Of a DNA stretch of 64,000 bases, positions 3,031-45,664 are shown piece after piece (position 1 is the stretch's first letter; each line of letters begins with the position of its first letter). The notes beneath the pieces were generated by a model, which saw nothing but the letters and a program-made list of their open reading frames with translations, ran no database searches and was not told where the DNA came from. The position numbers and the translations under genes were made by a program. This DNA is from a virus: positions 32,001-96,000 of IMG/VR virus record IMGVR_UViG_3300043331_000441; one strand, 5' to 3'.

Positions 3031-3429
3031 ATGCACCGCGAAGGCAACGACGACTTCGCCTTCAGGCCTGTCCACCAAACACAGATAGTCCGCGACGGCG
3101 AGTTCCTCTACGAGGAGGCGATCACGCCAGCCTGCGACTTCTGCTTGGACAGTCGCGTGGTCTGGGAGTATCCCTGCGCAACCTTCGTGCTCGACGATGA
3201 CTTCGGCTCAGACGGTGCGTGGCTCGCGTGCGCGCGCTGCGCTGAGTTGATCGAAGAACGGTTGCTGCCTGCGCTGACATTGCGCAGCCTGAAATCGAAG
3301 GAGGCCCGCGGCGAGAAGATCACTGGCGACGCCATCGATCGCATCGGCCGCATCCAGCAGGGCTTCTTCGACCATCGCAACGGCGAGCGGTTCGTATGCA
3401 AGGAGGCCGCGAATGCGCAGCAACCTTGA
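3031..3429 (+). CDS. hypothetical Zn-binding protein
   Basis: AAAGGAGAAC RBS; CDFC...WLACARC. Confidence 0.75.
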   Translation: MHREGNDDFAFRPVHQTQIVRDGEFLYEEAITPACDFCLDSRVVWEYPCATFVLDDDFGSDGAWLACARCAELIEERLLPALTLRSLKSKEARGEKITGDAIDRIGRIQQGFFDHRNGERFVCKEAANAQQP

Positions 3430-3706
3430 CCTACTGATGGCAGAGATGGGGAAGCACACCATACGAGCGCATGCGCTTCAAGACGAAGCCCGTGCCCTCG
3501 CGCGCGACGCAGGCGAACTACAGGCGATGGCGATGGCCGTAAGTGAGGAGATTCGCCTCGATGGGACACCGAACGCCGCGTCGATCCCGGAGAAGCAATG
3601 CCCGAATCGGTACGCGCACAAGTCTCACCTTTGGCGAGACGAGGACTACGGCAAGGCCGTTTGGCCGACATGCCGCTGTTCGGGAAGGAGCACTGACGCG
3701 ACATGA
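3413..3706 (+). CDS. hypothetical protein
   Basis: GGAGG RBS, overlaps neighbours in the operon. Confidence 0.65.
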   Translation: MRSNLDLLMAEMGKHTIRAHALQDEARALARDAGELQAMAMAVSEEIRLDGTPNAASIPEKQCPNRYAHKSHLWRDEDYGKAVWPTCRCSGRSTDAT

Positions 3707-4169: not shown

Positions 4170-4531
4170 CGTACCCCATAGCATCAGTGATCTACGGCTG
4201 CCCATATCCACAAGGGCACCCGGATGGCGACACGTTCGAGGCGCTCATGGACGACCACTTCGGCGAGGACGCGATCTTCGGCTTGTCGCAGGACGAAGAG
4301 TCACTGTGGGAAAGCAATTACAGCGCCTCCCCCAGCGGGGATCCCGCCGGATACTTTGGCGAACTGCTACACGCAGCCGATGGCTACTGGGAACTGCAGC
4401 CAGAGTGGTTTCAGCAGCCGGTTCCTGCAGACGTAGTTGTCCGCGTTGATGCCGCCTGGGAGACATTGCCAGAGCCGGTGCGCGAAGCCTTAGGGCGCCC
4501 CCGGTTGGCAATCGCATGGAGCGACTCATGA
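4166..4531 (+). CDS. hypothetical acidic protein
   Basis: AAAGGAGAAC RBS at 4153 before ATG 4166. Confidence 0.75.
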   Translation: MTYPIASVIYGCPYPQGHPDGDTFEALMDDHFGEDAIFGLSQDEESLWESNYSASPSGDPAGYFGELLHAADGYWELQPEWFQQPVPADVVVRVDAAWETLPEPVREALGRPRLAIAWSDS

Positions 4532-4698
4532 ACGAACTCCAGAACCCGACAATCGACGAAACGCCTGTAAGCGAAGACGAGGCCGAACCAGAACTCGCTC
4601 ATTGGATGCATCCCACAGACGTTCAGATGGAACTGATGAACGAGGGGCGCTTCCCACGGCTGGATGGACTGAGCTGGGTCTTCCCAGGAGGGCAGTGA
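4516..4698 (+). CDS. hypothetical acidic protein
   Basis: Fills the gap in the operon; start may be 4528. Confidence 0.55.
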   Translation: MERLMNELQNPTIDETPVSEDEAEPELAHWMHPTDVQMELMNEGRFPRLDGLSWVFPGGQ

Positions 4699-24172: not shown

Positions 24173-24682
24173 ATGACCGAGATCGTCCCCGTCCCATCGC
24201 AAGGCATCCAGCTACTCGCCGAGTTAGAGAAGGCGGGGGCGATCACCAACACCGCACTCATCCTCCCACCAGACATACCGTACGAGCAGTGTGAATCACT
24301 CGCGACGATGCTCGGTCAGCTGCACCGCACGTCGCAGTGGCTGATCGGTGATTTGCTCAATCACATCGAACGGGTCTACGGTGAGACGTATGCACAGGCA
24401 GCGGAGGCAACAGGTCTCTCGAAAGGGGCGCTCATGAACTACACCTCTGTCTGCGCGCACATACCGCGCTCACGGCGGCGGCACAACGTGCCGTTCTCAA
24501 CCCACATGGAAGTTGCGTATCTCGAACCGACCGAGCAGGAACGCTGGTTGAGCCAGGCTGCCGCGAATCGGTGGACAAAGGAAGAACTGCGTGCTGCGAG
24601 AAAAGCAGAGGGCAATCACTCGCCAGCGGTAGTAGAATGCGTATGTGCAGCGTGTGGACATGTCCACACGCACACCGCATAA
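24173..24682 (+). CDS. LmbU-family-like DNA-binding regulator
   Basis: QWLIGD...YGETYAQAAEATGL...NYTSV...RRRHNVPFSTHMEVA...QERWLSQA...WTKEELR matches the LmbU pattern. Confidence 0.7.
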   Translation: MTEIVPVPSQGIQLLAELEKAGAITNTALILPPDIPYEQCESLATMLGQLHRTSQWLIGDLLNHIERVYGETYAQAAEATGLSKGALMNYTSVCAHIPRSRRRHNVPFSTHMEVAYLEPTEQERWLSQAAANRWTKEELRAARKAEGNHSPAVVECVCAACGHVHTHTA

Positions 24683-24705: not shown

Positions 24706-24810
24706 GCGCCCGTAGCTCATTGGTAGAGCACCGGTCTGATTGGCCGGAGGTAAGCGCGAAAGCATAGGTGGGTTCATCGCCACCGAAAGGTTCGATTCCT
24801 GCCGGGCGCT
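24706..24810 (+). ncRNA. tRNA-like RNA 1 (anticodon position GAT) with a 32-nt insert in the T-stem
   Basis: Acceptor GCGCCCG/CGGGCGC, D-arm GCTC/GAGC, anticodon stem CCGGT/GCCGG, T-loop TTCGATT; T-stem GC|insert 24756-24787|AGG pairs CCTGC. Confidence 0.85.
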
Positions 24811-24933
24811 TACGCAAGAGAGCAGCGCACTCTCTAGGGCTGGGAAACGGGAAGCCGAAGCGTGGCAGCGGGGGCGCCCCGCGCAGAAGCCAATCCGTGC
24901 GATGCGGAGCACCGTTTCCCAGTACCGACTTAT

Positions 24934-25086
24934 CGGGATGTAGCTCAGTGGTAGAGCACCGGTCTGATGTACCGGAGGACGCGTCTGAAAAGACATAGGC
25001 ATTCCAGAAGGGCGACGTATTCGCGCTTTTGAGAAGCCGGAGCGAAATACTCCGTAAGCCGAAAGGTTCGAATCCTGCCATCCCGA
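24934..25086 (+). ncRNA. tRNA-like RNA 2 (anticodon position GAT) with an 81-nt insert in the T-stem
   Basis: Acceptor CGGGATG/CATCCCG, D-arm GCTC/GAGC, CCGGT/ACCGG, T-loop TTCGAAT; T-stem GC|insert 24983-25063|AGG pairs CCTGC. Confidence 0.85.
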
Positions 25087-25550: not shown

Positions 25551-25864
25551 AAGGAGAACAAGTGAGCGAGAGGCGAGCATTCCCTCACTCGCGCCAGCCG
25601 GTGTGCCCCACTGAATAAAGCCATGGAAGAATGCGACCACGACTGGGATGACGACTTCATGGGCGGTTCAATCTGCCGAAAGTGTCGTACGCATGTCTAA
25701 AAACGTCTTCTGGGAGGGCGTGTCTGCCAAGGATGACCCGCGTCGGTTCAGACGTCCAGTACGGGTGGATGGAAAGAATTGCCGTGACCGTCAACCCTGG
25801 GGAGGATTCACCGACCAGGAGCGATGTGAATGCGTCGGAGAATGCGAGTACGATCGCCGACAGA

Positions 25865-26167
25865 ATGAGGCTTCGTGACCCAGGACTCCTCGCGCTTCTT
25901 TCGCATACGTATGACGAATGCGCATTGTGTGGCACCACACAAAATCTGCACCTGCACCACGTGCTCTACCGCTCGCAAGGAGGTGATGATGTCCGTGGGA
26001 ATATCGTTTGCCTCTGCCGCTCGTGCCATGAAGCAGTTCACCGAGGCGATAAAGCTGCTCTCCACGCACACATCCGCCTCTTCCGGCCAGACGTCGTGGA
26101 ATATCTGCAAGGACGACTAGGTGTAGATGCAGCGAATGCACGTTTAGCGTCCGATGCCTGTGGATAA
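25865..26167 (+). CDS. HNH endonuclease
   Basis: CALCG...LHLHHV...GGDD..GN+VCLCRSCHEAVH. Confidence 0.85.
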   Translation: MRLRDPGLLALLSHTYDECALCGTTQNLHLHHVLYRSQGGDDVRGNIVCLCRSCHEAVHRGDKAALHAHIRLFRPDVVEYLQGRLGVDAANARLASDACG

Positions 26168-26188
26168 CATATCCCCAGGTGATTGTGG

Positions 26189-26509
26189 ATGGCAACAAAG
26201 CTGTACGACAGCCAGCGCTGGCGCGACTACCGTTCGCGCGTTCTCGCAGACGACGCTGAGTGCGCCTTCGCGCGCCTGGCGGGCGACTGCAGCGGCGCGC
26301 TGCAAGTTCATCACGTTGAGCCACTCGCTGACGGTGGGCCACCGTTTCCCGCCAGAGATGGCGTGGTTGTGTTGTGTGTCGCGCACCACAGCTGGCTCCA
26401 CGGCTGGAAGCGACGTAAGAAGCAGACCTGGAAAAGGTGTCCTCATCACCATGTGACGCCCGAAGGGCGTCGCCTGTGTGAACGTAGGCTGAACCGAGTC
26501 GCCGCCTAG
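26189..26509 (+). CDS. HNH endonuclease (terminase-associated gp74-like type)
   Basis: YDSQRWR..R..VL...C......C.....VHHVEPL..GG...VVLCVAHH. Confidence 0.8.
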   Translation: MATKLYDSQRWRDYRSRVLADDAECAFARLAGDCSGALQVHHVEPLADGGPPFPARDGVVVLCVAHHSWLHGWKRRKKQTWKRCPHHHVTPEGRRLCERRLNRVAA

Positions 26510-26539
26510 TACGTCCGATCGCAAAATTACTGTTTCCCC

Positions 26540-26935
26540 GTGGAAGTTTCCCCGGAGGAAAGGGCATGGGCTGCTGGTCTCTTCGAGGGCGAGGGTTGTC
26601 TTGCATACAGCAACGGACGCCCGCGTCTACAACTCAAGATGATCCATGAGGAAAGCGTTCGACGTGTTCATGCAGCGATTGGGCTTGGCAAGGTGTACGG
26701 GCCGTACGGCCCGTACACCAGCCAATTCGGTAGTAAGCCTGTGTTCATGTGGGTCGTCGACCAAGACGAGGTTGCGGAGGCAATCGAACTCTTGCGTCCC
26801 CATCTGTCAGAGTGGGCCGCCAAACGGCTTGATCGAACTGCGGACGAACGCATCAATGATGTTCCTCGTGCGGTGCGTAAGCCCAAGCGTCGCCGCCCGC
26901 CAGAGAACACAGATGCCGACGACTGGTTGTCATGA
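26540..26935 (+). CDS. LAGLIDADG-family endonuclease-like protein
   Basis: ERAWAAGLFEGEGCL motif, then RLQLKM...IGLGKVY. Confidence 0.75.
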   Translation: MEVSPEERAWAAGLFEGEGCLAYSNGRPRLQLKMIHEESVRRVHAAIGLGKVYGPYGPYTSQFGSKPVFMWVVDQDEVAEAIELLRPHLSEWAAKRLDRTADERINDVPRAVRKPKRRRPPENTDADDWLS

Positions 26936-26959
26936 CACGTGGATTAGTAGACTGTCATG

Positions 26960-27316
26960 ACGCATGGGCGGAGCATGGTGCGCAGCGAGAGGCTGTGACG
27001 AGGGTCGGCACACCCTGGTTGAAACACTCCGCCCTTGCACTAAGTAGTCTGTTCAGATCTGCGGCCCCAACCCGTCGAGCACGAAGGGCATCTTCACAGG
27101 CGGGAGGGCCGCAGAAAATCAGTGGGCCTCAGGTCTGTAGTAGCGAGTTGATCGCCGTGAACTGGCCTCGTGCAGCCTTTGTGAGCCGTAGTTGACGACA
27201 CGCTGCGGTGAGCAGGGGAAAGACCCGGCTAAGCGGGCGCCCACAAATCCCGGCACGCCTGACAGGGAAGTGTTCTCAGTGGATAGGGTCAGTACATCCG
27301 AGAACCGCCGGGATCA
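26960..27316 (+). ncRNA. ORF-free array of nested stem-loops (candidate structured ncRNA)
   Basis: GGGCGGAG/CTCCGCCC, CTGCGGCCC/GGGCCGCAG, GTGGGC/GCCCAC and ATCCCGGC/GCCGGGAT closing stems, each with inner hairpins. Confidence 0.55.
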
Positions 27317-27319
27317 TGA

Positions 27320-27406
27320 TCTGCGCAGAGGGAGACGGGCGCGCGGCCATGCGTCGGAATCAGGGGCGGCGACCTTCCCCCCGACGTATTCGTACGGACT
27401 CCCTCA
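27320..27406 (+). ncRNA. pseudoknot element copy A
   Basis: CTGCGC/GCGCGG crossing GAGGGAG/CTCCCTC, with a long inner hairpin. Confidence 0.6.
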
Positions 27407-27409
27407 TTT

Positions 27410-27481
27410 GCCCCGGTCGTTCAGCGGCCAGGATGCCGCCCTGTCGAGGCGGAGACACGGGTTCGATTCCCGTCCGGGGCG
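27410..27481 (+). tRNA. tRNA-Asp (GTC), no encoded CCA
   Basis: Canonical cloverleaf GCCCCGG/CCGGGGC, CCGCC-CT-GTC-GA-GGCGG, ACGGG-TTCGATT-CCCGT, discriminator G. Confidence 0.93.
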
Positions 27482-27573
27482 TCTGCGCAGAGGGGAGACG
27501 GCGCGCGCAGCGCGGAGTCGATGAAGGAACAGAACCTCCTCCCTTCATCGCCTGCGGGATCGGACTCCCCTCA
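27482..27573 (+). ncRNA. pseudoknot element copy B
   Basis: CTGCGC/GCGCAG crossing GAGGGGAG/CTCCCCTC; inner hairpin CGATGAAGG/CCTTCATCG. Confidence 0.6.
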
Positions 27574-27590
27574 GATGAAAGGAGAACACA

Positions 27591-27719
27591 GTGAAACTGC
27601 CGTTTCGACGTGCTGCGAAATATCGGACGCGCCGCCGGTGGGGCCGATGTCTGCTGTGCGGGCGCTTCGGGCGTCTCTACGATTGCGTGGGCGATTGGCT
27701 TTGTAGACGATGTGGATAG
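27591..27719 (+). CDS. small Zn-ribbon protein (42 aa)
   Basis: AAAGGAGAAC RBS; CLLC...CRRC. Confidence 0.65.
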   Translation: MKLPFRRAAKYRTRRRWGRCLLCGRFGRLYDCVGDWLCRRCG

Positions 27720-27912
27720 AGGTGATCAAAAACGCCAGACACGAACTTCCTGAGTAAGACTCCGGGCCCGACGTCCGTAGTCGGATGGTGGATGCTCTAC
27801 CCTCGTCGGAGGCCCCATCCTGGCGGCGTCTAGTTGGGAGTGATGCCCCAACACGCACCTGCACCTGGGAACAGAACGCAGGGCGTTTCATCACAACAGA
27901 AGGGAGAACACG

Positions 27913-28392
27913 ATGGGTTTACGAGAGATCATCACTGGCAGCGACGCCGAGGATAAGAAGCTCAGCGCGTCCGTCGGTCTACGGCCTTACAAGCGCTGGT
28001 ACTTCTTTGGCTGGAAGTCCCCGCAGATTCTCTACCGGCGGCTACGCAACAAGTACTACCCACTCAAGCGTCTGCGTTGGGCTTCACAACGCGCACGACG
28101 CGGCTACGACGACCCCGCGATCTGGAACCTCAATTCCACACTTGCGGAACTCACAGTGATCGGCTGCCGCAAGCATCGCGAGTACGGAAACGGGTACCCC
28201 GCAGAGTTCACCGAGGAGTACGGCAGCGGCGGCGGGTGGGAGAAATGGGAGGACATCCTGCGCCGCATCGAAGAGGGCTTCCAGGCCTGGCTTGATGAGG
28301 ACGGCTTCTTCCACGAGAAGCCAGAGCAGGAAGCGAAGTTCAAGGACGGAATGGCCCTCTATGGCGAATGGTTCGGTTCGCTCTGGGACTAA
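27913..28392 (+). CDS. hypothetical phage protein
   Basis: AAGGGAGAAC RBS; QRARRGYDD..IWNLN...GYP...WEDIL..I.EGF. Confidence 0.8.
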   Translation: MGLREIITGSDAEDKKLSASVGLRPYKRWYFFGWKSPQILYRRLRNKYYPLKRLRWASQRARRGYDDPAIWNLNSTLAELTVIGCRKHREYGNGYPAEFTEEYGSGGGWEKWEDILRRIEEGFQAWLDEDGFFHEKPEQEAKFKDGMALYGEWFGSLWD

Positions 28393-28404
28393 AGGGAGAA
28401 CACA

Positions 28405-28641
28405 ATGGTTGAGTGGACAGCAGCCGAGAAAGGCTTCTCGCTCTCCGACGATGAGCAGAACGGCGTCGTGATCGCCGTCAACACGATCCTGCGCGGCGCA
28501 TGGACACCCGCAGGAGTAGAGAAGTGGTGGGACCGCCCGCGACACGAGCTGCGCGGGGCCACACCCAGAGAGGCCCTGCCGTATATCCCAACGGACGTCG
28601 TGGAACTGGCGATTGCCGGGATGATGCAGGGCGGATCATGA
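28405..28641 (+). CDS. stand-alone Xre/MbcA/ParS antitoxin C-terminal-like domain
   Basis: WTPAGVEKWWDRPRHELRGATPREAL...DVVELA pattern. Confidence 0.65.
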   Translation: MVEWTAAEKGFSLSDDEQNGVVIAVNTILRGAWTPAGVEKWWDRPRHELRGATPREALPYIPTDVVELAIAGMMQGGS

Positions 28642-31376: not shown

Positions 31377-31709
31377 GGGCTCAGAGCAGCCGAGATGGGA
31401 ATGGTCGCGGGGGGTGAGGGAGTGTGCCGGTTGTGAGCGCACGCTCCGGATCGCAGACGTCCGCTGTTGGCACGCGGGCGCGGACGGCATCCCGGTCATC
31501 TTCTGCCACGAGTGCTTCCCCGGACGTTGGCGAGAGTGGCTTACATCTGCGCGCACGTCTGCGCAGGGCGATCACGACTGACGGCAGCATTGATCCAGAA
31601 GAAATTGTAGAGTTGATCGCCCGACAAATAGAACGAGCGAAAGGAGCAGCGATGCGTAGGACAATCTAGCCCTGCTGCGGATCAGCGGGGCGCCCCCAAG
31701 GAGGCGCTT

Positions 31710-40527: not shown

Positions 40528-43052
40528 CAGGGGAACTTTATACTGCCAAACGTAAGAATTGGTCCGGGCTCCCACGGGATGTAGGGATCAGGATCAAAGG
40601 GAATCACCCACAGTGTCGGCACATACTCGTTGGTGACCGGATGATTTGTGTCACAGAGTGAGTAGACGACGTTGCCCTTGGCGTACGTCTTATGCATCGA
40701 TCCATTATCCAGCCACAGACCGGTGCTGTTGTTACGACGACTTGCCCAACACGCTCCACCGCCTGTGCCGTCTTCTGCAACACGTTTGATCATCCACGAC
40801 CCATCACCGCTCCAGGAATTGGAATCGATCGTCAACCAGATCGATCCATCTGTGGTCGCGACTACATCACAGCCACTCGGATCAATCCACAACCCAACCT
40901 CTGAGTCGAAGGGACGAACGGTTGGGTATGTGATCAACCCACCCACTGGGTTGACCTTGGTGATATAGACGCCGTAGTCCAGTGATAGTCCATTACCGTG
41001 CGCAGATGCCAAGATTGGTGTCTCACCGTCATCGACAAACGAGAATCCTTGCTGCCAGTGCAGAATGGTTGGATCGCCCGGGGGATCATAGAGATCTGCA
41101 AAGTTAAAGTGTTGGTTGGCCCAACTCCCAGGGGCGCCCCCGTACTCCCACAACCACCACTCAAAGTGCGGCACGCCGGGATCGTGTGTAGTGGTTACGC
41201 CGTAATACGTACAATACGCGACTGTGGGATTTTCCCCAGGGCCATCTGACTGACAGAACGTCAGATCAACCTGGACGCATGTATAAAAGTCAACAACCGC
41301 GAGGTCGTTGGCGTCTCTATCGGCATTCGCGTGCGGATTGATCGGTTCCGGGATTTGCGCATCGACCCATGCGGAACCATTCCAGTAAAACGCAAACGGC
41401 ATCTGCGCTTCAAAGAGCGGGCGACTTACATCGGGATCGTTCTGACAGAACGTGATCCAAGGAACACCAAGCGGTGAACATTTGATTTGTGGTGCTGATG
41501 CGTTCGGGCTTCCGGCTGACGCCGCAAAGGTAGAAGCGGATTTGCCGACGATCTCCCCGCCTAGATCAGACCAGGATGCGCCTCCGACGTCGTACTTGCG
41601 GACGTGGATTGCCCAGTCTGCGTCACCGATAGCCATGTAGTCGCCCTTGTTTTCCCCGTAGGCGATAAAAAGATCAGTTCCGTCAGTATCCATGGAGAGA
41701 GACATGATGGTTCCCGCCCCAGTACTGGCGAAGACAAACGGGAATGACCCATCGCCACCAACACCAAAAGGATTGTCGCTTACCAATGACCACGTCGTCC
41801 CATTCCACTTATGGATCGCGGCGCGAAGATCACCAGTGTCACCAGGACTAATCGACTCGAAGAAAATAATGTAAACATCTCCGTTGTCAGTAACACATAG
41901 ATCTTTTTGCCATGTGTGAGACCCAGTCGATTCGTGTAGGAAGTTTGCTGGCGTATCGACATCTGGCCAGCCAACCGGGAGATCGGGAATCTCCAAAAGC
42001 TGGATGGGATCGCCAGGACGCCCCCCGGTCTCCTCCTTGTACCAGCGTAGGTCTTCGAAGATCGTGATATCGCCGCCGCTGCCGTGTGTCCCACTCGCGT
42101 AATACGCTGTAAATGAGAACTCAAACTCGTCCGCAGCAAGAACTGGCATAAGCCACGGCCCATCGTAATCAGATACACGCGGTGGATCACTGGTCTGATC
42201 TGTGAGTTCGATCCATTCATATGTCGTGCCCACAGATGGTATTTGGGTAGTTGTGAGTGGAAAACCGTTTCGTCTGATCTGGCAGAAGAAGAATTCCCCG
42301 GGAAGCGTTGCGCTCTTGAGGCGCGCGAAGAGACGCCAACGTCCAGGGCTTGGAAGATCTGCACCAGAGATTGTGAACGTTGGGACAACGTCGGTGATAT
42401 TGGGAAAATCAGAATATGGAAGCGGAGTTGAGTAGGTATCGAAGTTGTCGGCATCGTTGATGTAGTCGGCCCCAACAGTGACGGTCGCCTTGCCTCCATT
42501 AGCTCCGGCAAGAATATTGGTGATCGTTGGAGCGGCCGGAGTCAGTGTGTACGTGAGATCAAGAGAACCTTCTTCAACACCGTTGTAGTCGGCGACGATG
42601 ATGTACCAGACCCCAGTCTGGGACATGTCAGTAAGAAAACTGCCTGTCTCATCTCTGCTGCTGCCATAGAACTCACGCAGCACCGGAGGCGGCGTCTCGG
42701 TACCGTCCCCAAGGCCGCTACCTCCACCTGCGTATTGCAGCTTCGTAAAATCAGGTGTAGTCGGGTCCCATGTGTTGTCGTCTACCTTGAGGACGTCGAC
42801 GTATGGAAAAAAGCTCGCGCTGCCCCCCGTCTTTGTGACACTCAGATCCAGGGAGACGTTGTAGCCACCAGCAAATGTGCCCTCTAGATATGCGCTGAGG
42901 TCGAACTTCAGCCAAACCGTTGCCGCATATCCCCCCAAAGACACGAGTTCGTTTGTCTCGTTCCCCGCCCCAACAATCGAGAGCGACACAGAATGCGGGG
43001 CAGCATCTTGCTGCAACGCAAGCGCGTCCTGAATGTTGTCATATAAGGCCAT
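40527..43052 (-). CDS. large tail/receptor-binding protein, paralogue B
   Basis: 841 aa; N-terminus DNIQDALAL.QD shared with 43079..45664. Confidence 0.75.
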
Positions 43053-43078: not shown

Positions 43079-45664
43079 TCACGGCCTCTTAATGTCCCCG
43101 TAGACGAATTGGATGCATGACACATATGGCATCTTCAGTACAAAGATGCCATCCGCGAATTGACCTGATCCACCGTCGTCTAATTGGGTATCAGCACACC
43201 ACGCTGTGTAGGCAAAATCTCCCACGATCTTGATCGGATTGTTCGTCGTAGAGAACTGATACATAACCCAACGATTAGTTCGGTTGGCCCCATCTTCGGT
43301 TGCGGTTTCCATTATTGCTGGAACACCGGCCATCGCGAAACCAAGACTGAATCCGGGACTGGACTTGAGAATCTTCGGCTCGTAGTTGACGAGACTAGAG
43401 ATTGATTCTGACCACATCGCTCTATAGATCTCGCCGTCTGGGCCCATTGCAGATGAATTGCGCGACTGCCGCCATGGACCGGCGGACTTGCCTGGAAAAT
43501 CTGGGTTGTATAGCTCCCATTGTGTGCCGCCGTCGTTCATCACCCAGACATCCCAGATCTCATCATCTGAATTGAAACTTTGCAGCAGGTCACCGGCGAG
43601 AACGAGTTTCCCGAGCGTCTCATTCCAGAAAAGATCATGGTCAATTAATAGTCGTGACCAGAGGAAATTGGGGTCGGGTGCTGTGGTGAACCATTGGAGG
43701 CGATCGTTCCCTTCGATCGAGACCCAGTCAGTGATAATTTCGTCATGCCATCCTGTCCCGACTGTGTAACTGATCGTCTCGGTTGGGTATTCGTTCGCCG
43801 CGCGAAAATAGGTATAGACAAGCGTGAATCCATCAGTGACAAGGCCTTCGCCAGACCGGGCCGCAACCATCGCGCTGAGGCGATCGTAGAACCCGTTCTC
43901 CCCCGATACCTCGTAGACCCCACCGACAATGTCAGGATCGTTGGGGTCTGGGCAGTTGAGGTCTGTCCAGTTAGTTCCATTCCACCGCCAGACGGTCATG
44001 CGCCGGTCGTTGCCGGGTGACGAGACATCAAGCGTTTCCACAGCGGCGACGTAAACGTCCCCATTGCCTGGTGCAAGAATTTCGGGAGCTAGAACCGAAA
44101 GATCGTAGTTCCTCGTTTGGTTCGTGATCCCATACTTGTTCTGCCCCGTTCCCAGTTCTGTTACTGAATCATCAGAGGTATCGAGCGCGAAGCAATGCCA
44201 TTTGAAGAGTGTTTTGTCTGGAACTCCAGGAATGAATGTATCCCATTCCCAGAACGCGAAGTACACGAAGCCGTCGGCCTCTGACGCTTTCGCACTAACA
44301 CCCCATCCGACTTCCCTAAATGCAGTCGGAGGTGTGTTGACATTCAGAGTTGCGACTTGTGTCCAGTCGTCCGTATTCGGGTCGTATTTCTTGACCCCGA
44401 CCCATTCAAGGTTTGACGACTCGTCGTGGACGATTATGTAGACCGTGCCATCAGCGAGCGCGGCGATATCAAAATCAGCCCAATTGATCCCCCATGCGAA
44501 ATCACCTTCATCGTACGGCGTAATGCCCTGATCGGCCCAGATCTCGTCGAGTACGAACTTCTGCCCGCCCCAACCATTAGGACTTCCCCACACGTCCCCT
44601 AGTGGCGTTGCTGGGAATGCCAATGATGGCGTGCAGGCCGATGACGTGGGGGCGCCCGTGTCGCGGGTGAAGCACACTTGCCTGACGTCATAGGGAACAA
44701 GTGAAAACGGACTGGACGACAACTGCGCATCACTAACGGTGAGAATCTCGATTTCATCACCGGGCTGAAGAGGAATCCATGTGCCAGTGAACTCATCGTC
44801 GTTCGTAACCCATGTAGCGCCATCCAAGCCGTCGTAGGCGGAGAATGTGAAATCAGAATCGTCGTCTGGTGCTAGCGTCCCTGCCCCAAGAAACATGCGC
44901 CCATTGACGCGAGCGAGAACTCGGATCGACCCATTGTTCGCTGCGTTTACCGACATCTTCCCCGTAACAGACATCGTGTACTGCCCCGCTACTCCGGCCC
45001 AGGTAAACGTGAGCGTCGGCTCTTGCCCGTCTATTGGATAGTTGCCATTCGGCCATTGATCCCATGCTTCGCGCACGTAATTGGTATCGACGACGCTGGC
45101 GGTCGTGCTACTGGGGTTGATGATGTCGATAGCGTCGAAGCAGACTGGTTCTGCGTCGATCGTGACAGTGACGTCGGCCGCGCCATACGTCGCAAAATCC
45201 CAATCGGTTAGGAAGAAGTAGAAGACGCCATTATCACTTCTAAAGTCACCACCAGATGTGTTGGCCCCATTAAGTCCGCCACACAATAGAAATGTGTCTG
45301 CTGGTGGGTCTGTGGTGCCGTCTCCGATGAAGCGACTATTGAGGTCTTTCAGCTTTGAAAAATCGGGACTGGTCGGGTCAAAAGTTGCATCCGTGACCTT
45401 ATATACGTTTACATAAGGATGGAAATTGGCGTCCCCTCCGGTGCGTACAGCATCAAGTGTTACTTCGACGTTTGGATTGACCCCGTCGATCGCTACGGGG
45501 TAGCCGCTGAGGTCGATCTTCGCCCAAACGCCTTCCCATCCTTCGCCAAATGTAGATTCGTTGCCCTCGAACGTCGCACCAGTGGTGTCTAACGCCAGCG
45601 TGTGTGGAAGCCCGTCCTGCGTAAGGGCCAGGGCGTCCTGGATGTTGTCGTGGAGCGGTGGCAC
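43079..45664 (-). CDS. large tail/receptor-binding protein, paralogue A
   Basis: 861 aa; shared DNIQDALAL and DPT.PDF.KL motifs and a similar C-terminus. Confidence 0.75.
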   Translation of the reverse strand: MPPLHDNIQDALALTQDGLPHTLALDTTGATFEGNESTFGEGWEGVWAKIDLSGYPVAIDGVNPNVEVTLDAVRTGGDANFHPYVNVYKVTDATFDPTSPDFSKLKDLNSRFIGDGTTDPPADTFLLCGGLNGANTSGGDFRSDNGVFYFFLTDWDFATYGAADVTVTIDAEPVCFDAIDIINPSSTTASVVDTNYVREAWDQWPNGNYPIDGQEPTLTFTWAGVAGQYTMSVTGKMSVNAANNGSIRVLARVNGRMFLGAGTLAPDDDSDFTFSAYDGLDGATWVTNDDEFTGTWIPLQPGDEIEILTVSDAQLSSSPFSLVPYDVRQVCFTRDTGAPTSSACTPSLAFPATPLGDVWGSPNGWGGQKFVLDEIWADQGITPYDEGDFAWGINWADFDIAALADGTVYIIVHDESSNLEWVGVKKYDPNTDDWTQVATLNVNTPPTAFREVGWGVSAKASEADGFVYFAFWEWDTFIPGVPDKTLFKWHCFALDTSDDSVTELGTGQNKYGITNQTRNYDLSVLAPEILAPGNGDVYVAAVETLDVSSPGNDRRMTVWRWNGTNWTDLNCPDPNDPDIVGGVYEVSGENGFYDRLSAMVAARSGEGLVTDGFTLVYTYFRAANEYPTETISYTVGTGWHDEIITDWVSIEGNDRLQWFTTAPDPNFLWSRLLIDHDLFWNETLGKLVLAGDLLQSFNSDDEIWDVWVMNDGGTQWELYNPDFPGKSAGPWRQSRNSSAMGPDGEIYRAMWSESISSLVNYEPKILKSSPGFSLGFAMAGVPAIMETATEDGANRTNRWVMYQFSTTNNPIKIVGDFAYTAWCADTQLDDGGSGQFADGIFVLKMPYVSCIQFVYGDIKRP

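Follow-up and report, generated by a model that had tools for sequence, protein, structure and literature searches.

We analyzed a 64-kb window (bases 32001-96000) of IMG/VR virus record IMGVR_UViG_3300043331_000441, the 130,556-bp genome of an uncultured environmental phage (60% G+C; 92% complete by CheckV), and focused on two related RNA modules, copy A and copy B, that flank a tRNA-Asp gene within a stretch free of open reading frames (ORFs) at 26936-27590 (window coordinates, unless given as genome positions). All genes surrounding this locus lie on the + strand, as do the tRNA and both modules. Read 5' to 3', the locus runs from three HNH-type homing-endonuclease ORFs (25682-26167, 26183-26509 and 26540-26935, from matches to PHROG HNH families) through a structured leader without ORFs (26936-27319), whose G+C content by codon position departs from the pattern in the phage's genes, to copy A (27320-27406, 87 nt), tRNA-Asp (anticodon GUC; 27410-27481) and copy B (27482-27573, 92 nt). 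Directly 3' of copy B lie the ribosome-binding site GAUGAAAGGAGAACA and GTG27591, and further downstream come a possible ORF of 42 aa, whose ribosome-binding site is strong, and then a 159-aa gene.

The tRNA (60.4 bits against Rfam RF00005, also called by ARAGORN) has the acceptor stem GCCCCGG/CCGGGGC and the discriminator G27481, and the bases that follow are UCU, with no encoded CCA. The modules abut this tRNA on both sides, as a first-pass annotation of the locus had described: between copy A and the tRNA stand just the 3 nt UUU, and copy B starts at the first nucleotide after the discriminator. That annotation also placed copy A right after a closed RNA domain, whereas 7 nt (AUCAUGA) intervene between the module and the stem that closes this domain (CCCGGC 27249-27254 / GCCGGG 27307-27312). 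Within the same domain, two further pairings can be drawn by eye, CUGAC 27259-27263 with GUCAG 27288-27292 and GUUCUC 27272-27277 with GAGAAC 27300-27305, and the two helices would cross.

Alignment of A and B shows two shared blocks, one of 26 nt at the 5' end, UCUGCGCAGAGGG(G)AGACGG(G)CGCGCG, and one of 13 nt at the 3' end, CGGACUCCC(C)UCA. A covariance model built from copy B alone (R1; a second model, R2, was built from A and B together) recovers copy A with 25.6 bits (E 0.003 in the window), in agreement with the earlier description of two copies with common ends, and returns no third copy in the window or the remaining genome. The stretches between the shared blocks are unalignable, yet form hairpins in both copies, again as annotated (-22.0 kcal/mol in A and -21.7 kcal/mol in B, with z-scores of -1.4 and -2.3).

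In copy A, a 10-nt tail with the sequence UCUGCGCAGA (27320-27329) contains the candidate 5' strand of a crossing helix, P1 (27321-27326), and overlaps at its last two nucleotides (27328-27329) the 5' strand of a closing helix, P2 (GAGGGAG, 27328-27334). The conserved junction ACGGGC (27335-27340), the candidate P1 3' strand GCGCGG (27341-27346) and a variable hairpin, P4 (27349-27389, with predicted stems of 9 bp, 4 bp and 2 bp), come next, and the 3' block (27395-27406) is made up of CGGA (27395-27398), the P2 3' strand CUCCCUC (27399-27405) and A27406. Copy B begins with the same tail (27482-27491; candidate P1 5' strand 27483-27488), continues with the P2 5' strand GAGGGGAG (27490-27497) and the junction ACGGCGC together with two candidate P1 3' registers (27498-27516), and has a predicted P4 hairpin, GAUGAAGG/CCUUCAUC, at 27520-27549 that is extendable to 27506-27556. 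Its 3' block (27561-27573) again consists of CGGA (27561-27564), the P2 3' strand CUCCCCUC (27565-27572) and a final A27573.

The first-pass annotation held that both crossing helices are preserved between the copies, and our analysis bears this out for P2. This closing helix is GAGGGAG/CUCCCUC in A (7 bp) and GAGGGGAG/CUCCCCUC in B (8 bp), with all pairs standard; the difference is a single matched G/C insertion (columns 11/136 of alignment A6). P2 dominates the thermodynamic ensemble, with pair probabilities of 0.61-0.997 in A and 0.53-0.92 in B when 26936-27600 is folded. For P1 the claim fails in so far as it implies covariation, since the only difference between the copies is a one-sided U-A/U-G wobble change, with no two-sided substitution, in a comparison of two sequences. 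P1 can be drawn as 6 bp from +2 in each copy, CUGCGC/GCGCGG in A (27321-27326 with 27341-27346) and CUGCGC/GCGCAG in B (3' strand 27505-27510); copy B offers a second register of 7 bp from +1, UCUGCGC/GCGCGGA (27482-27488 with 27510-27516). The duplex is worth -8.6 kcal/mol in A and -9.3 or -10.5 kcal/mol in the two registers of B. Before any knot penalty, the knotted folds compare with the best nested ones as -32.7 plus -8.6 vs. -37.5 kcal/mol in A and -38.3 plus -9.3 vs. -40.7 kcal/mol in B. Growing copy A transcripts of 28-70 nt, in which the P2 3' strand does not yet exist, likewise have P1 as their minimum-energy fold, and prefix folds of copy B show both registers; the conserved 5' block, moreover, stops exactly at the end of the P1 3' strand. 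Random 8-mers from the genome match the real tail's pairing with the internal loop in 7-10% (A) and 2-3% (B) of trials, and a bare P1/P2 topology descriptor matches about 100 loci in the genome, which is chance level. The crossing helix is thus possible and energetically competitive on these models, and weakly supported.

A separate likeness concerns the 3' edge of copy B (27520-27590), where the hairpin 5' strand GAUGAAGGAAC resembles the ribosome-binding site GAUGAAAGGAGAAC just downstream. The hairpin 3' strand would pair with the ribosome-binding site at -9.4 kcal/mol, compared with -13.4 kcal/mol for its own partner; the resemblance might reflect a translational switch or a mere trace of duplication.

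We searched for relatives of the modules at several levels. With blastn in distant mode, neither 26900-27950 nor copy B matched anything in 50,697 phage records beyond the tRNA and chance 20-30-mers. Among IMG/VR viral contigs, the 19-nt core had 0 matches, the tRNA-Asp 3' half matched only 2 unrelated tRNA arrays, and the T-loop joined to UCUGCGCAG matched only 6 unrelated AT-rich phages; in 185,579 prokaryote genomes the core pattern produced 3 chance matches, none with a partner strand. Relatives of the neighbouring genes were sought as well, including in one metagenome scan, and none of their loci (L002-L015 for the 159-aa protein, L018-L028 for a cupin) holds the tRNA-Asp locus or the modules. 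Models R1 and R2 gave no further copy in the window, the whole genome, five related large phage records or 37 loci, and returned only weak matches (G002 43576-43625; window 24642-24672 and 31558-31623; L018 3411-3474, minus strand). The closest relative seen was a 70-kb Logan contig (70,065 bp), which encodes close relatives of both neighbour genes (P0023, P0046) and whose DNA the homologue searches did not cover. The related cupin-bearing locus L018 (IMGVR_UViG_3300027907_000049, 3406-3474) has two tRNA-like genes, and 1-5 nt separate the first of them from the end of a stable hairpin with GGGAGGGG/CCCCUCCC as its closing stem; copy A holds the same position relative to tRNA-Asp. A related 124-kb phage (IMGVR_UViG_3300048851_000098, 34600-42100) carries 26 tRNA genes, with hairpins in some of the spacers. 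Its spacers hold small ORFs right after a tRNA or long hairpins from +2, such as the one that follows the tRNA at 41269-41339, GGCAAUGAC...GUCAUUGCC.

In our tentative reading, A and B are diverged copies of one RNA module that acts in cis without catalysis, punctuating the transcript and clamping its ends, an account that we consider quite possible while stopping short of calling it probable. Each module would combine a conserved base (an 8-nt tail, a purine/pyrimidine closing helix of 7-8 bp, and the junctions ACGG and CGGA) with an apical hairpin that is free to vary. A scan of 26200-28600 turned up no promoter- or terminator-like site, so the tRNA-Asp stretch is likely co-transcribed with the neighbouring genes, and we infer one transcript, punctuated by the modules, that would carry the three homing-endonuclease genes, the leader of about 380 nt, A, tRNA-Asp, B and the next genes. 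We found no CCA-adding enzyme, RtcB, RNA ligase or RNase III encoded by the phage, which must therefore depend on host tRNA processing. Host RNase P would cut at G27410 and leave an upstream RNA ending in the copy A helix with a 4-nt AUUU overhang, which would be too short for a 3' exonuclease to engage; the cut after G27481 would fall to a 3' endonuclease of the host, for example RNase Z, so that the downstream mRNA would begin with copy B. The tail of B could then be tucked into its own internal loop through P1, as an H-type knot, or paired with the palindrome of A. A tucked tail, standing just before the ribosome-binding site, would shield the new 5' end from 5'-end-dependent nucleases, and the modules may also insulate the tRNA fold from its very G+C-rich neighbours.

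The exact placement of the modules argues for such clamps, with A at -3 and B at +1 of a CCA-less tRNA and the flanking genes on the same strand, as does the division of each module into conserved blocks at the foot of the fold and a variable apical hairpin. The pairing that P2 keeps through the matched indel, the stems of like design elsewhere in this genome and the hairpins beside tRNA genes in related phages speak for clamps as well. The placement also suits the broader part of the earlier proposal, which spoke of a new or reduced ribozyme or a 3'-processing signal: a role in processing fits the abutment to the tRNA, and the ribozyme part is taken up below. Nor do A and B look like intrinsic terminators, as neither has a terminator-like site; A is followed only by UUU and B by the ribosome-binding site. 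Several observations weigh on the other side. The junctions ACGG and CGGA are 100% conserved and the tail is perfectly conserved while the hairpins have diverged fully, a pattern that would better suit a protein site or a catalytic core than a clamp. Caps for a 3' end and for a 5' end would have no need of a common sequence. The stability of the whole modules is ordinary for their composition (z of -0.9 for A and -1.8 for B), and with no relatives in the collections searched, the support comes from one genome.

Punctuation by tRNAs is known from mitochondrial transcripts and from tRNAs co-transcribed with mRNAs in E. coli operons, and in MALAT1/mascRNA the 3' end that RNase P generates comes under the protection of a neighbouring structure. 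The phage locus is alike in that the embedded tRNA would define the ends of its neighbours, with structures at exactly those ends; it differs in that the flanks are two copies of one module with conserved junctions. A second comparison is with exoribonuclease-resistant RNAs (xrRNAs), which MacFadden et al. (2018, PMC5760640) present as RNA knots. As in these RNAs, the 5'-most nucleotides of a module could pair within a loop that a second helix closes, in a compact fold ahead of RNA worth protecting, whereas the modules have no sequence or covariance-model likeness to any xrRNA family in Rfam 15, and a ring topology is not demonstrable from their sequence. Reportedly, xrRNAs also stall bacterial RNase J1.

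The ends of the modules, in a feature that the first-pass annotation had passed over, offer a different pairing, which is a real rival to P1 on the same energy model. The first 10 nt of A and B are the perfect palindrome UCUGCGCAGA, absent from the rest of the 130-kb genome, and a perfect palindrome is what two identical copies require in order to pair with each other. In the nested fold of 26936-27600, the core of A (27322-27327) pairs with the core of B (27484-27489) with probabilities of 0.88-0.99 for the six pairs, and the inter-copy helix reaches -12.8 kcal/mol over 8 bp or -17.3 kcal/mol over 10 bp, compared with -8.6 to -10.5 kcal/mol for P1. It is therefore conceivable, if unlikely, that the tails at 27320-27329 and 27482-27491 pair to enclose hairpin A and the tRNA in a stem that stacks on hairpin B, which would provide a substrate for a double-strand-specific host nuclease or keep the tRNA immature until opened. 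The same arms, UCUGCG/CGCAGA, also close the 10-bp stem of an upstream domain at 27058-27115. The high probabilities are partly there by default, inflated because RNAfold cannot form pseudoknots and so could not place P1 at all, and the tail of A can pair locally 160 nt before B is transcribed. Moreover, the outer 2 bp conflict with P2, and an inter-copy stem leaves the conservation of ACGG, GCGCGCG and CGGA unexplained; since the tails are identical in both copies, this stem offers no covariation. The upstream domain itself lies in the leader, where UCUGCGGCCC (27058-27067) pairs with GGGCCGCAGA (27106-27115), and its outer arms equal the halves of the palindrome.

Stable stems of similar design stand directly against other tRNA-type genes of this phage. 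Starting at +1 of the tRNA-His gene (genome 4480-4550), a perfect 13-bp stem, UGGCGUCAGAGAG...CUCUCUGACGCCA, bounds a structured trailer of about 96 nt (locus 4480-4646), and the tRNA-His acceptor strand GAGGGAG is identical to the P2 strand of copy A. Within the window, two tRNA-like RNAs lie upstream of the endonuclease ORFs (24706-24810 and 24934-25086, + strand), and the first is followed by UACGCA-AGAGAG-CAGCGCA-CUCUCU (24811-24836), which has its parts in the same order as A and B, with a 6-bp stem, no inner hairpin, and a possible 3-bp crossing helix that is too short to tell from chance. We also considered a pseudo-tRNA origin of the modules and rejected it, as they show no significant likeness to tRNA-His, tRNA-Asp or the first tRNA-like RNA beyond the heptamer GAGGGAG; RF00005 matches only 27410-27481 within 27300-27600, so that A and B are not tRNAs. 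A likeness of the GAGACGGGCGCG stretch to the tRNA-His trailer was likewise set aside, being marginal (14-19 of 300 shuffles scored as high) and found at a different structural place. In addition, a hairpin at 24642-24672 occupies the last 40 nt of the ORF at 24173-24682, 34 nt before the first tRNA-like RNA; its tail UAUGUGCA resembles UCUGCGCA, and its 8-bp stem GCGUGUGG/CCACACGC is followed by A (R1 E 0.19, not significant alone).

A further recurrence lies beside a phage Ro60/TROVE gene (genome 114226-115254, minus strand; PF05731, 124 bits, E 3e-37, in an open frame of 551 aa). Directly upstream of this gene, on the same strand, is an array of at least six repeat units (genome ~115380-116420) that start with (U/G)GGGCCGGAG...GGUUAYC and contain a T-arm-like GGUUCGAAUCC, and which we take to resemble Y RNAs of the YrlA type. 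One array unit encloses a tRNA-like body (53.5 bits against the Rfam tRNA model, positions 6-65 only), and the first unit, to judge from the order of its parts (T-arm, acceptor 3' strand, UUCG loop, acceptor 5' strand, D-arm), may have a permuted layout. The end motifs of copy A, GCGCA-N0-2-GAGRGRG and CYCYCUCAUUU, each occur once more in the 261 kb of both strands (expected 0.55 and 0.2), at genome 116168 and 116030 on the minus strand, 138 nt apart and in the right order around one Y-RNA-like unit. Because these motifs recur, the purine/pyrimidine closing stem with its flanks looks like the phage's standard closure for small RNAs and not like a catalytic core.

This recurrence, found only around a Y-RNA-like/tRNA-like unit next to the Ro60 gene, raises the improbable alternative that A and B are themselves free-standing, stable small RNAs of Y-RNA-like build, released by tRNA-processing cuts and acting in trans, for instance with Ro60 or another protein. 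Their terminal stem, internal loop and upper stem follow a Y-RNA-like architecture, and the conserved junction nucleotides would suit a protein-binding site. Compared with Y RNAs, however, the modules do not carry the Ro-binding-type GGGCCGGAG...GGUUAUC motif that heads the array units, have no tRNA-like module and match no Y-RNA or YrlA family in Rfam. The 5' end of copy A, furthermore, has no known cutting site, and copy B runs directly into a ribosome-binding site.

The first-pass annotation had presented the modules as candidate self-processing ribozymes, a claim for which we find no positive support. It had itself set them apart from a canonical hepatitis delta virus (HDV) fold, and rightly so: CGGA precedes the closing 3' strand in both copies, and the segment available for P3, L3 and P1.1, the HDV active site, is only 6 nt in A and 7 nt in B where about 13 would be needed. 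A P1.1-like pairing of 2 bp can be imagined by eye in A (G27338 G27339 / C27347 C27348), outside the canonical arrangement and with no L3. No ribozyme family of Rfam 15 matched at E<=10, even over 301 nt with the laxest filters, and a permissive HDV-like descriptor, which hit 25 start sites by chance in the rest of the window, had 0 matches in 27250-27650 on either strand. The annotation had also held that a lack of homologues next to other phage tRNAs would tell against its claim, and none emerged from the searches of the collections available to us.

The closest known counterparts are the HDV-like theta ribozymes, whose cleavage-site base is G1, which lie within 1 nt of the tRNA end in 77% of tRNA-associated cases, whose associated tRNAs encode CCA in only 4.5% of cases, and in whose phages a CCA-adding enzyme and a DRB0094-type RNA ligase are over-represented (Kienbeck et al. 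2024, PMC10879173). Copy B resembles them in abutting a phage tRNA without encoded CCA, its first base lying next to the discriminator, and both modules have a 5' strand that can pair across the closing helix (P1, 6-7 bp), a P2 that pairs with the 3' end of the element (7 bp in A, 8 bp in B), a variable P4-like hairpin and, at the level of sequence, a C-N-R-A (CGGA) directly before the closing 3' strand. They differ in several respects: the modules have no P3, L3 or P1.1, their +1 base is U in both copies instead of G, they match no covariance model or descriptor, and the second copy stands upstream of the tRNA and not behind another tRNA. The phage, too, is a 60% G+C environmental phage and not one of gut Bacteroidota or Bacillota, and it has neither a CCA-adding enzyme nor a DRB0094-type RNA ligase. 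By these sequence comparisons, the modules are not HDV-like or theta ribozymes.

We regard it as possible but unlikely that they instead form a new class of small self-cleaving ribozyme, with an HDV-like knot and C-N-R-A strand and no P3/L3, that cuts at its own 5' edge, and no likelier that, in this role, B frees the tRNA-Asp 3' end and A frees the upstream non-coding RNA. Such a ribozyme would account for the same core in both copies by a single function, and it draws on the position of B at +1, the end of the 5' block at the P1 3' strand, the conserved CGGA, and a knot that is energetically competitive with P1 first to form. It is opposed by the missing HDV active site and the U at +1, by a P1 that shows no two-sided covariation and that 2-10% of random 8-mers equal, by a P1/P2 topology common by chance, by helix components that recur elsewhere in the genome as ordinary closing stems, and by the lack of homologues and theta-associated enzymes noted above.

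Least probable, and far-fetched in our view, is a feature of the DNA: a dimeric protein would bind the palindromes, or the conserved ends would be the termini of a recombining or mobile element linked to the homing endonucleases. In its favour, the perfect palindrome TCTGCGCAGA is present twice, 162 bp apart, the conserved ends can be read as a terminal inverted repeat, imperfect over 11 bp, and three HNH-type endonuclease ORFs lie just upstream. Against it, complementarity survives the matched indel and the middles of both copies fold although unrelated, which together indicate selection on RNA; the G-U pairs U27322-G27345 and G27351-U27387 are possible on the + strand only; the copies number just two; the search for a phage RNA polymerase gene came back empty; and the matches of the 19-nt core among prokaryote genomes were due to chance. 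A promoter for a phage-type polymerase (GGGAGAC, as in T7 leaders) was considered and discarded, with only two sites and no conserved upstream part; a T7-type polymerase gene was not found in the phage, in a search whose own control could not register.

The wider neighbourhood holds, upstream on the + strand, a 169-aa ORF and, ahead of the homing-endonuclease ORFs, a cupin/cysteine-dioxygenase-like gene. The third endonuclease ORF (26540-26935) shows by eye a LAGLIDADG-like motif, AGLFEGEGC, and has phrog_5046 ('HNH endonuclease') as its sole match. We rejected hidden ORFs in 26932-27594, where G+C by codon position differs from that of the phage's real genes. The 42-aa ORF downstream of copy B is Cys-rich and has a strong ribosome-binding site, with G+C by codon position that is not gene-like; between it and the 159-aa gene lies a further stretch of about 190 nt without a convincing ORF (27720-27912).

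How tRNAs and small RNAs are freed from long phage transcripts is poorly understood, and to our knowledge the HDV-like theta ribozyme is the only cis-acting device described at phage tRNA 3' ends. The modules are orphans supported by one genome, so our claim must stay modest; the locus nevertheless presents a different module, conserved, used twice and placed with base-exact precision on both sides of a tRNA. It does so in a phage whose Ro60 gene, Y-RNA-like array and odd tRNA look-alikes make it appear heavily invested in RNA biology. If the modules are self-cleaving after all, they would represent a new ribozyme class; if they are clamps or nuclease blocks, they would offer a compact natural part with which to insulate and stabilise RNAs excised from polycistronic transcripts.

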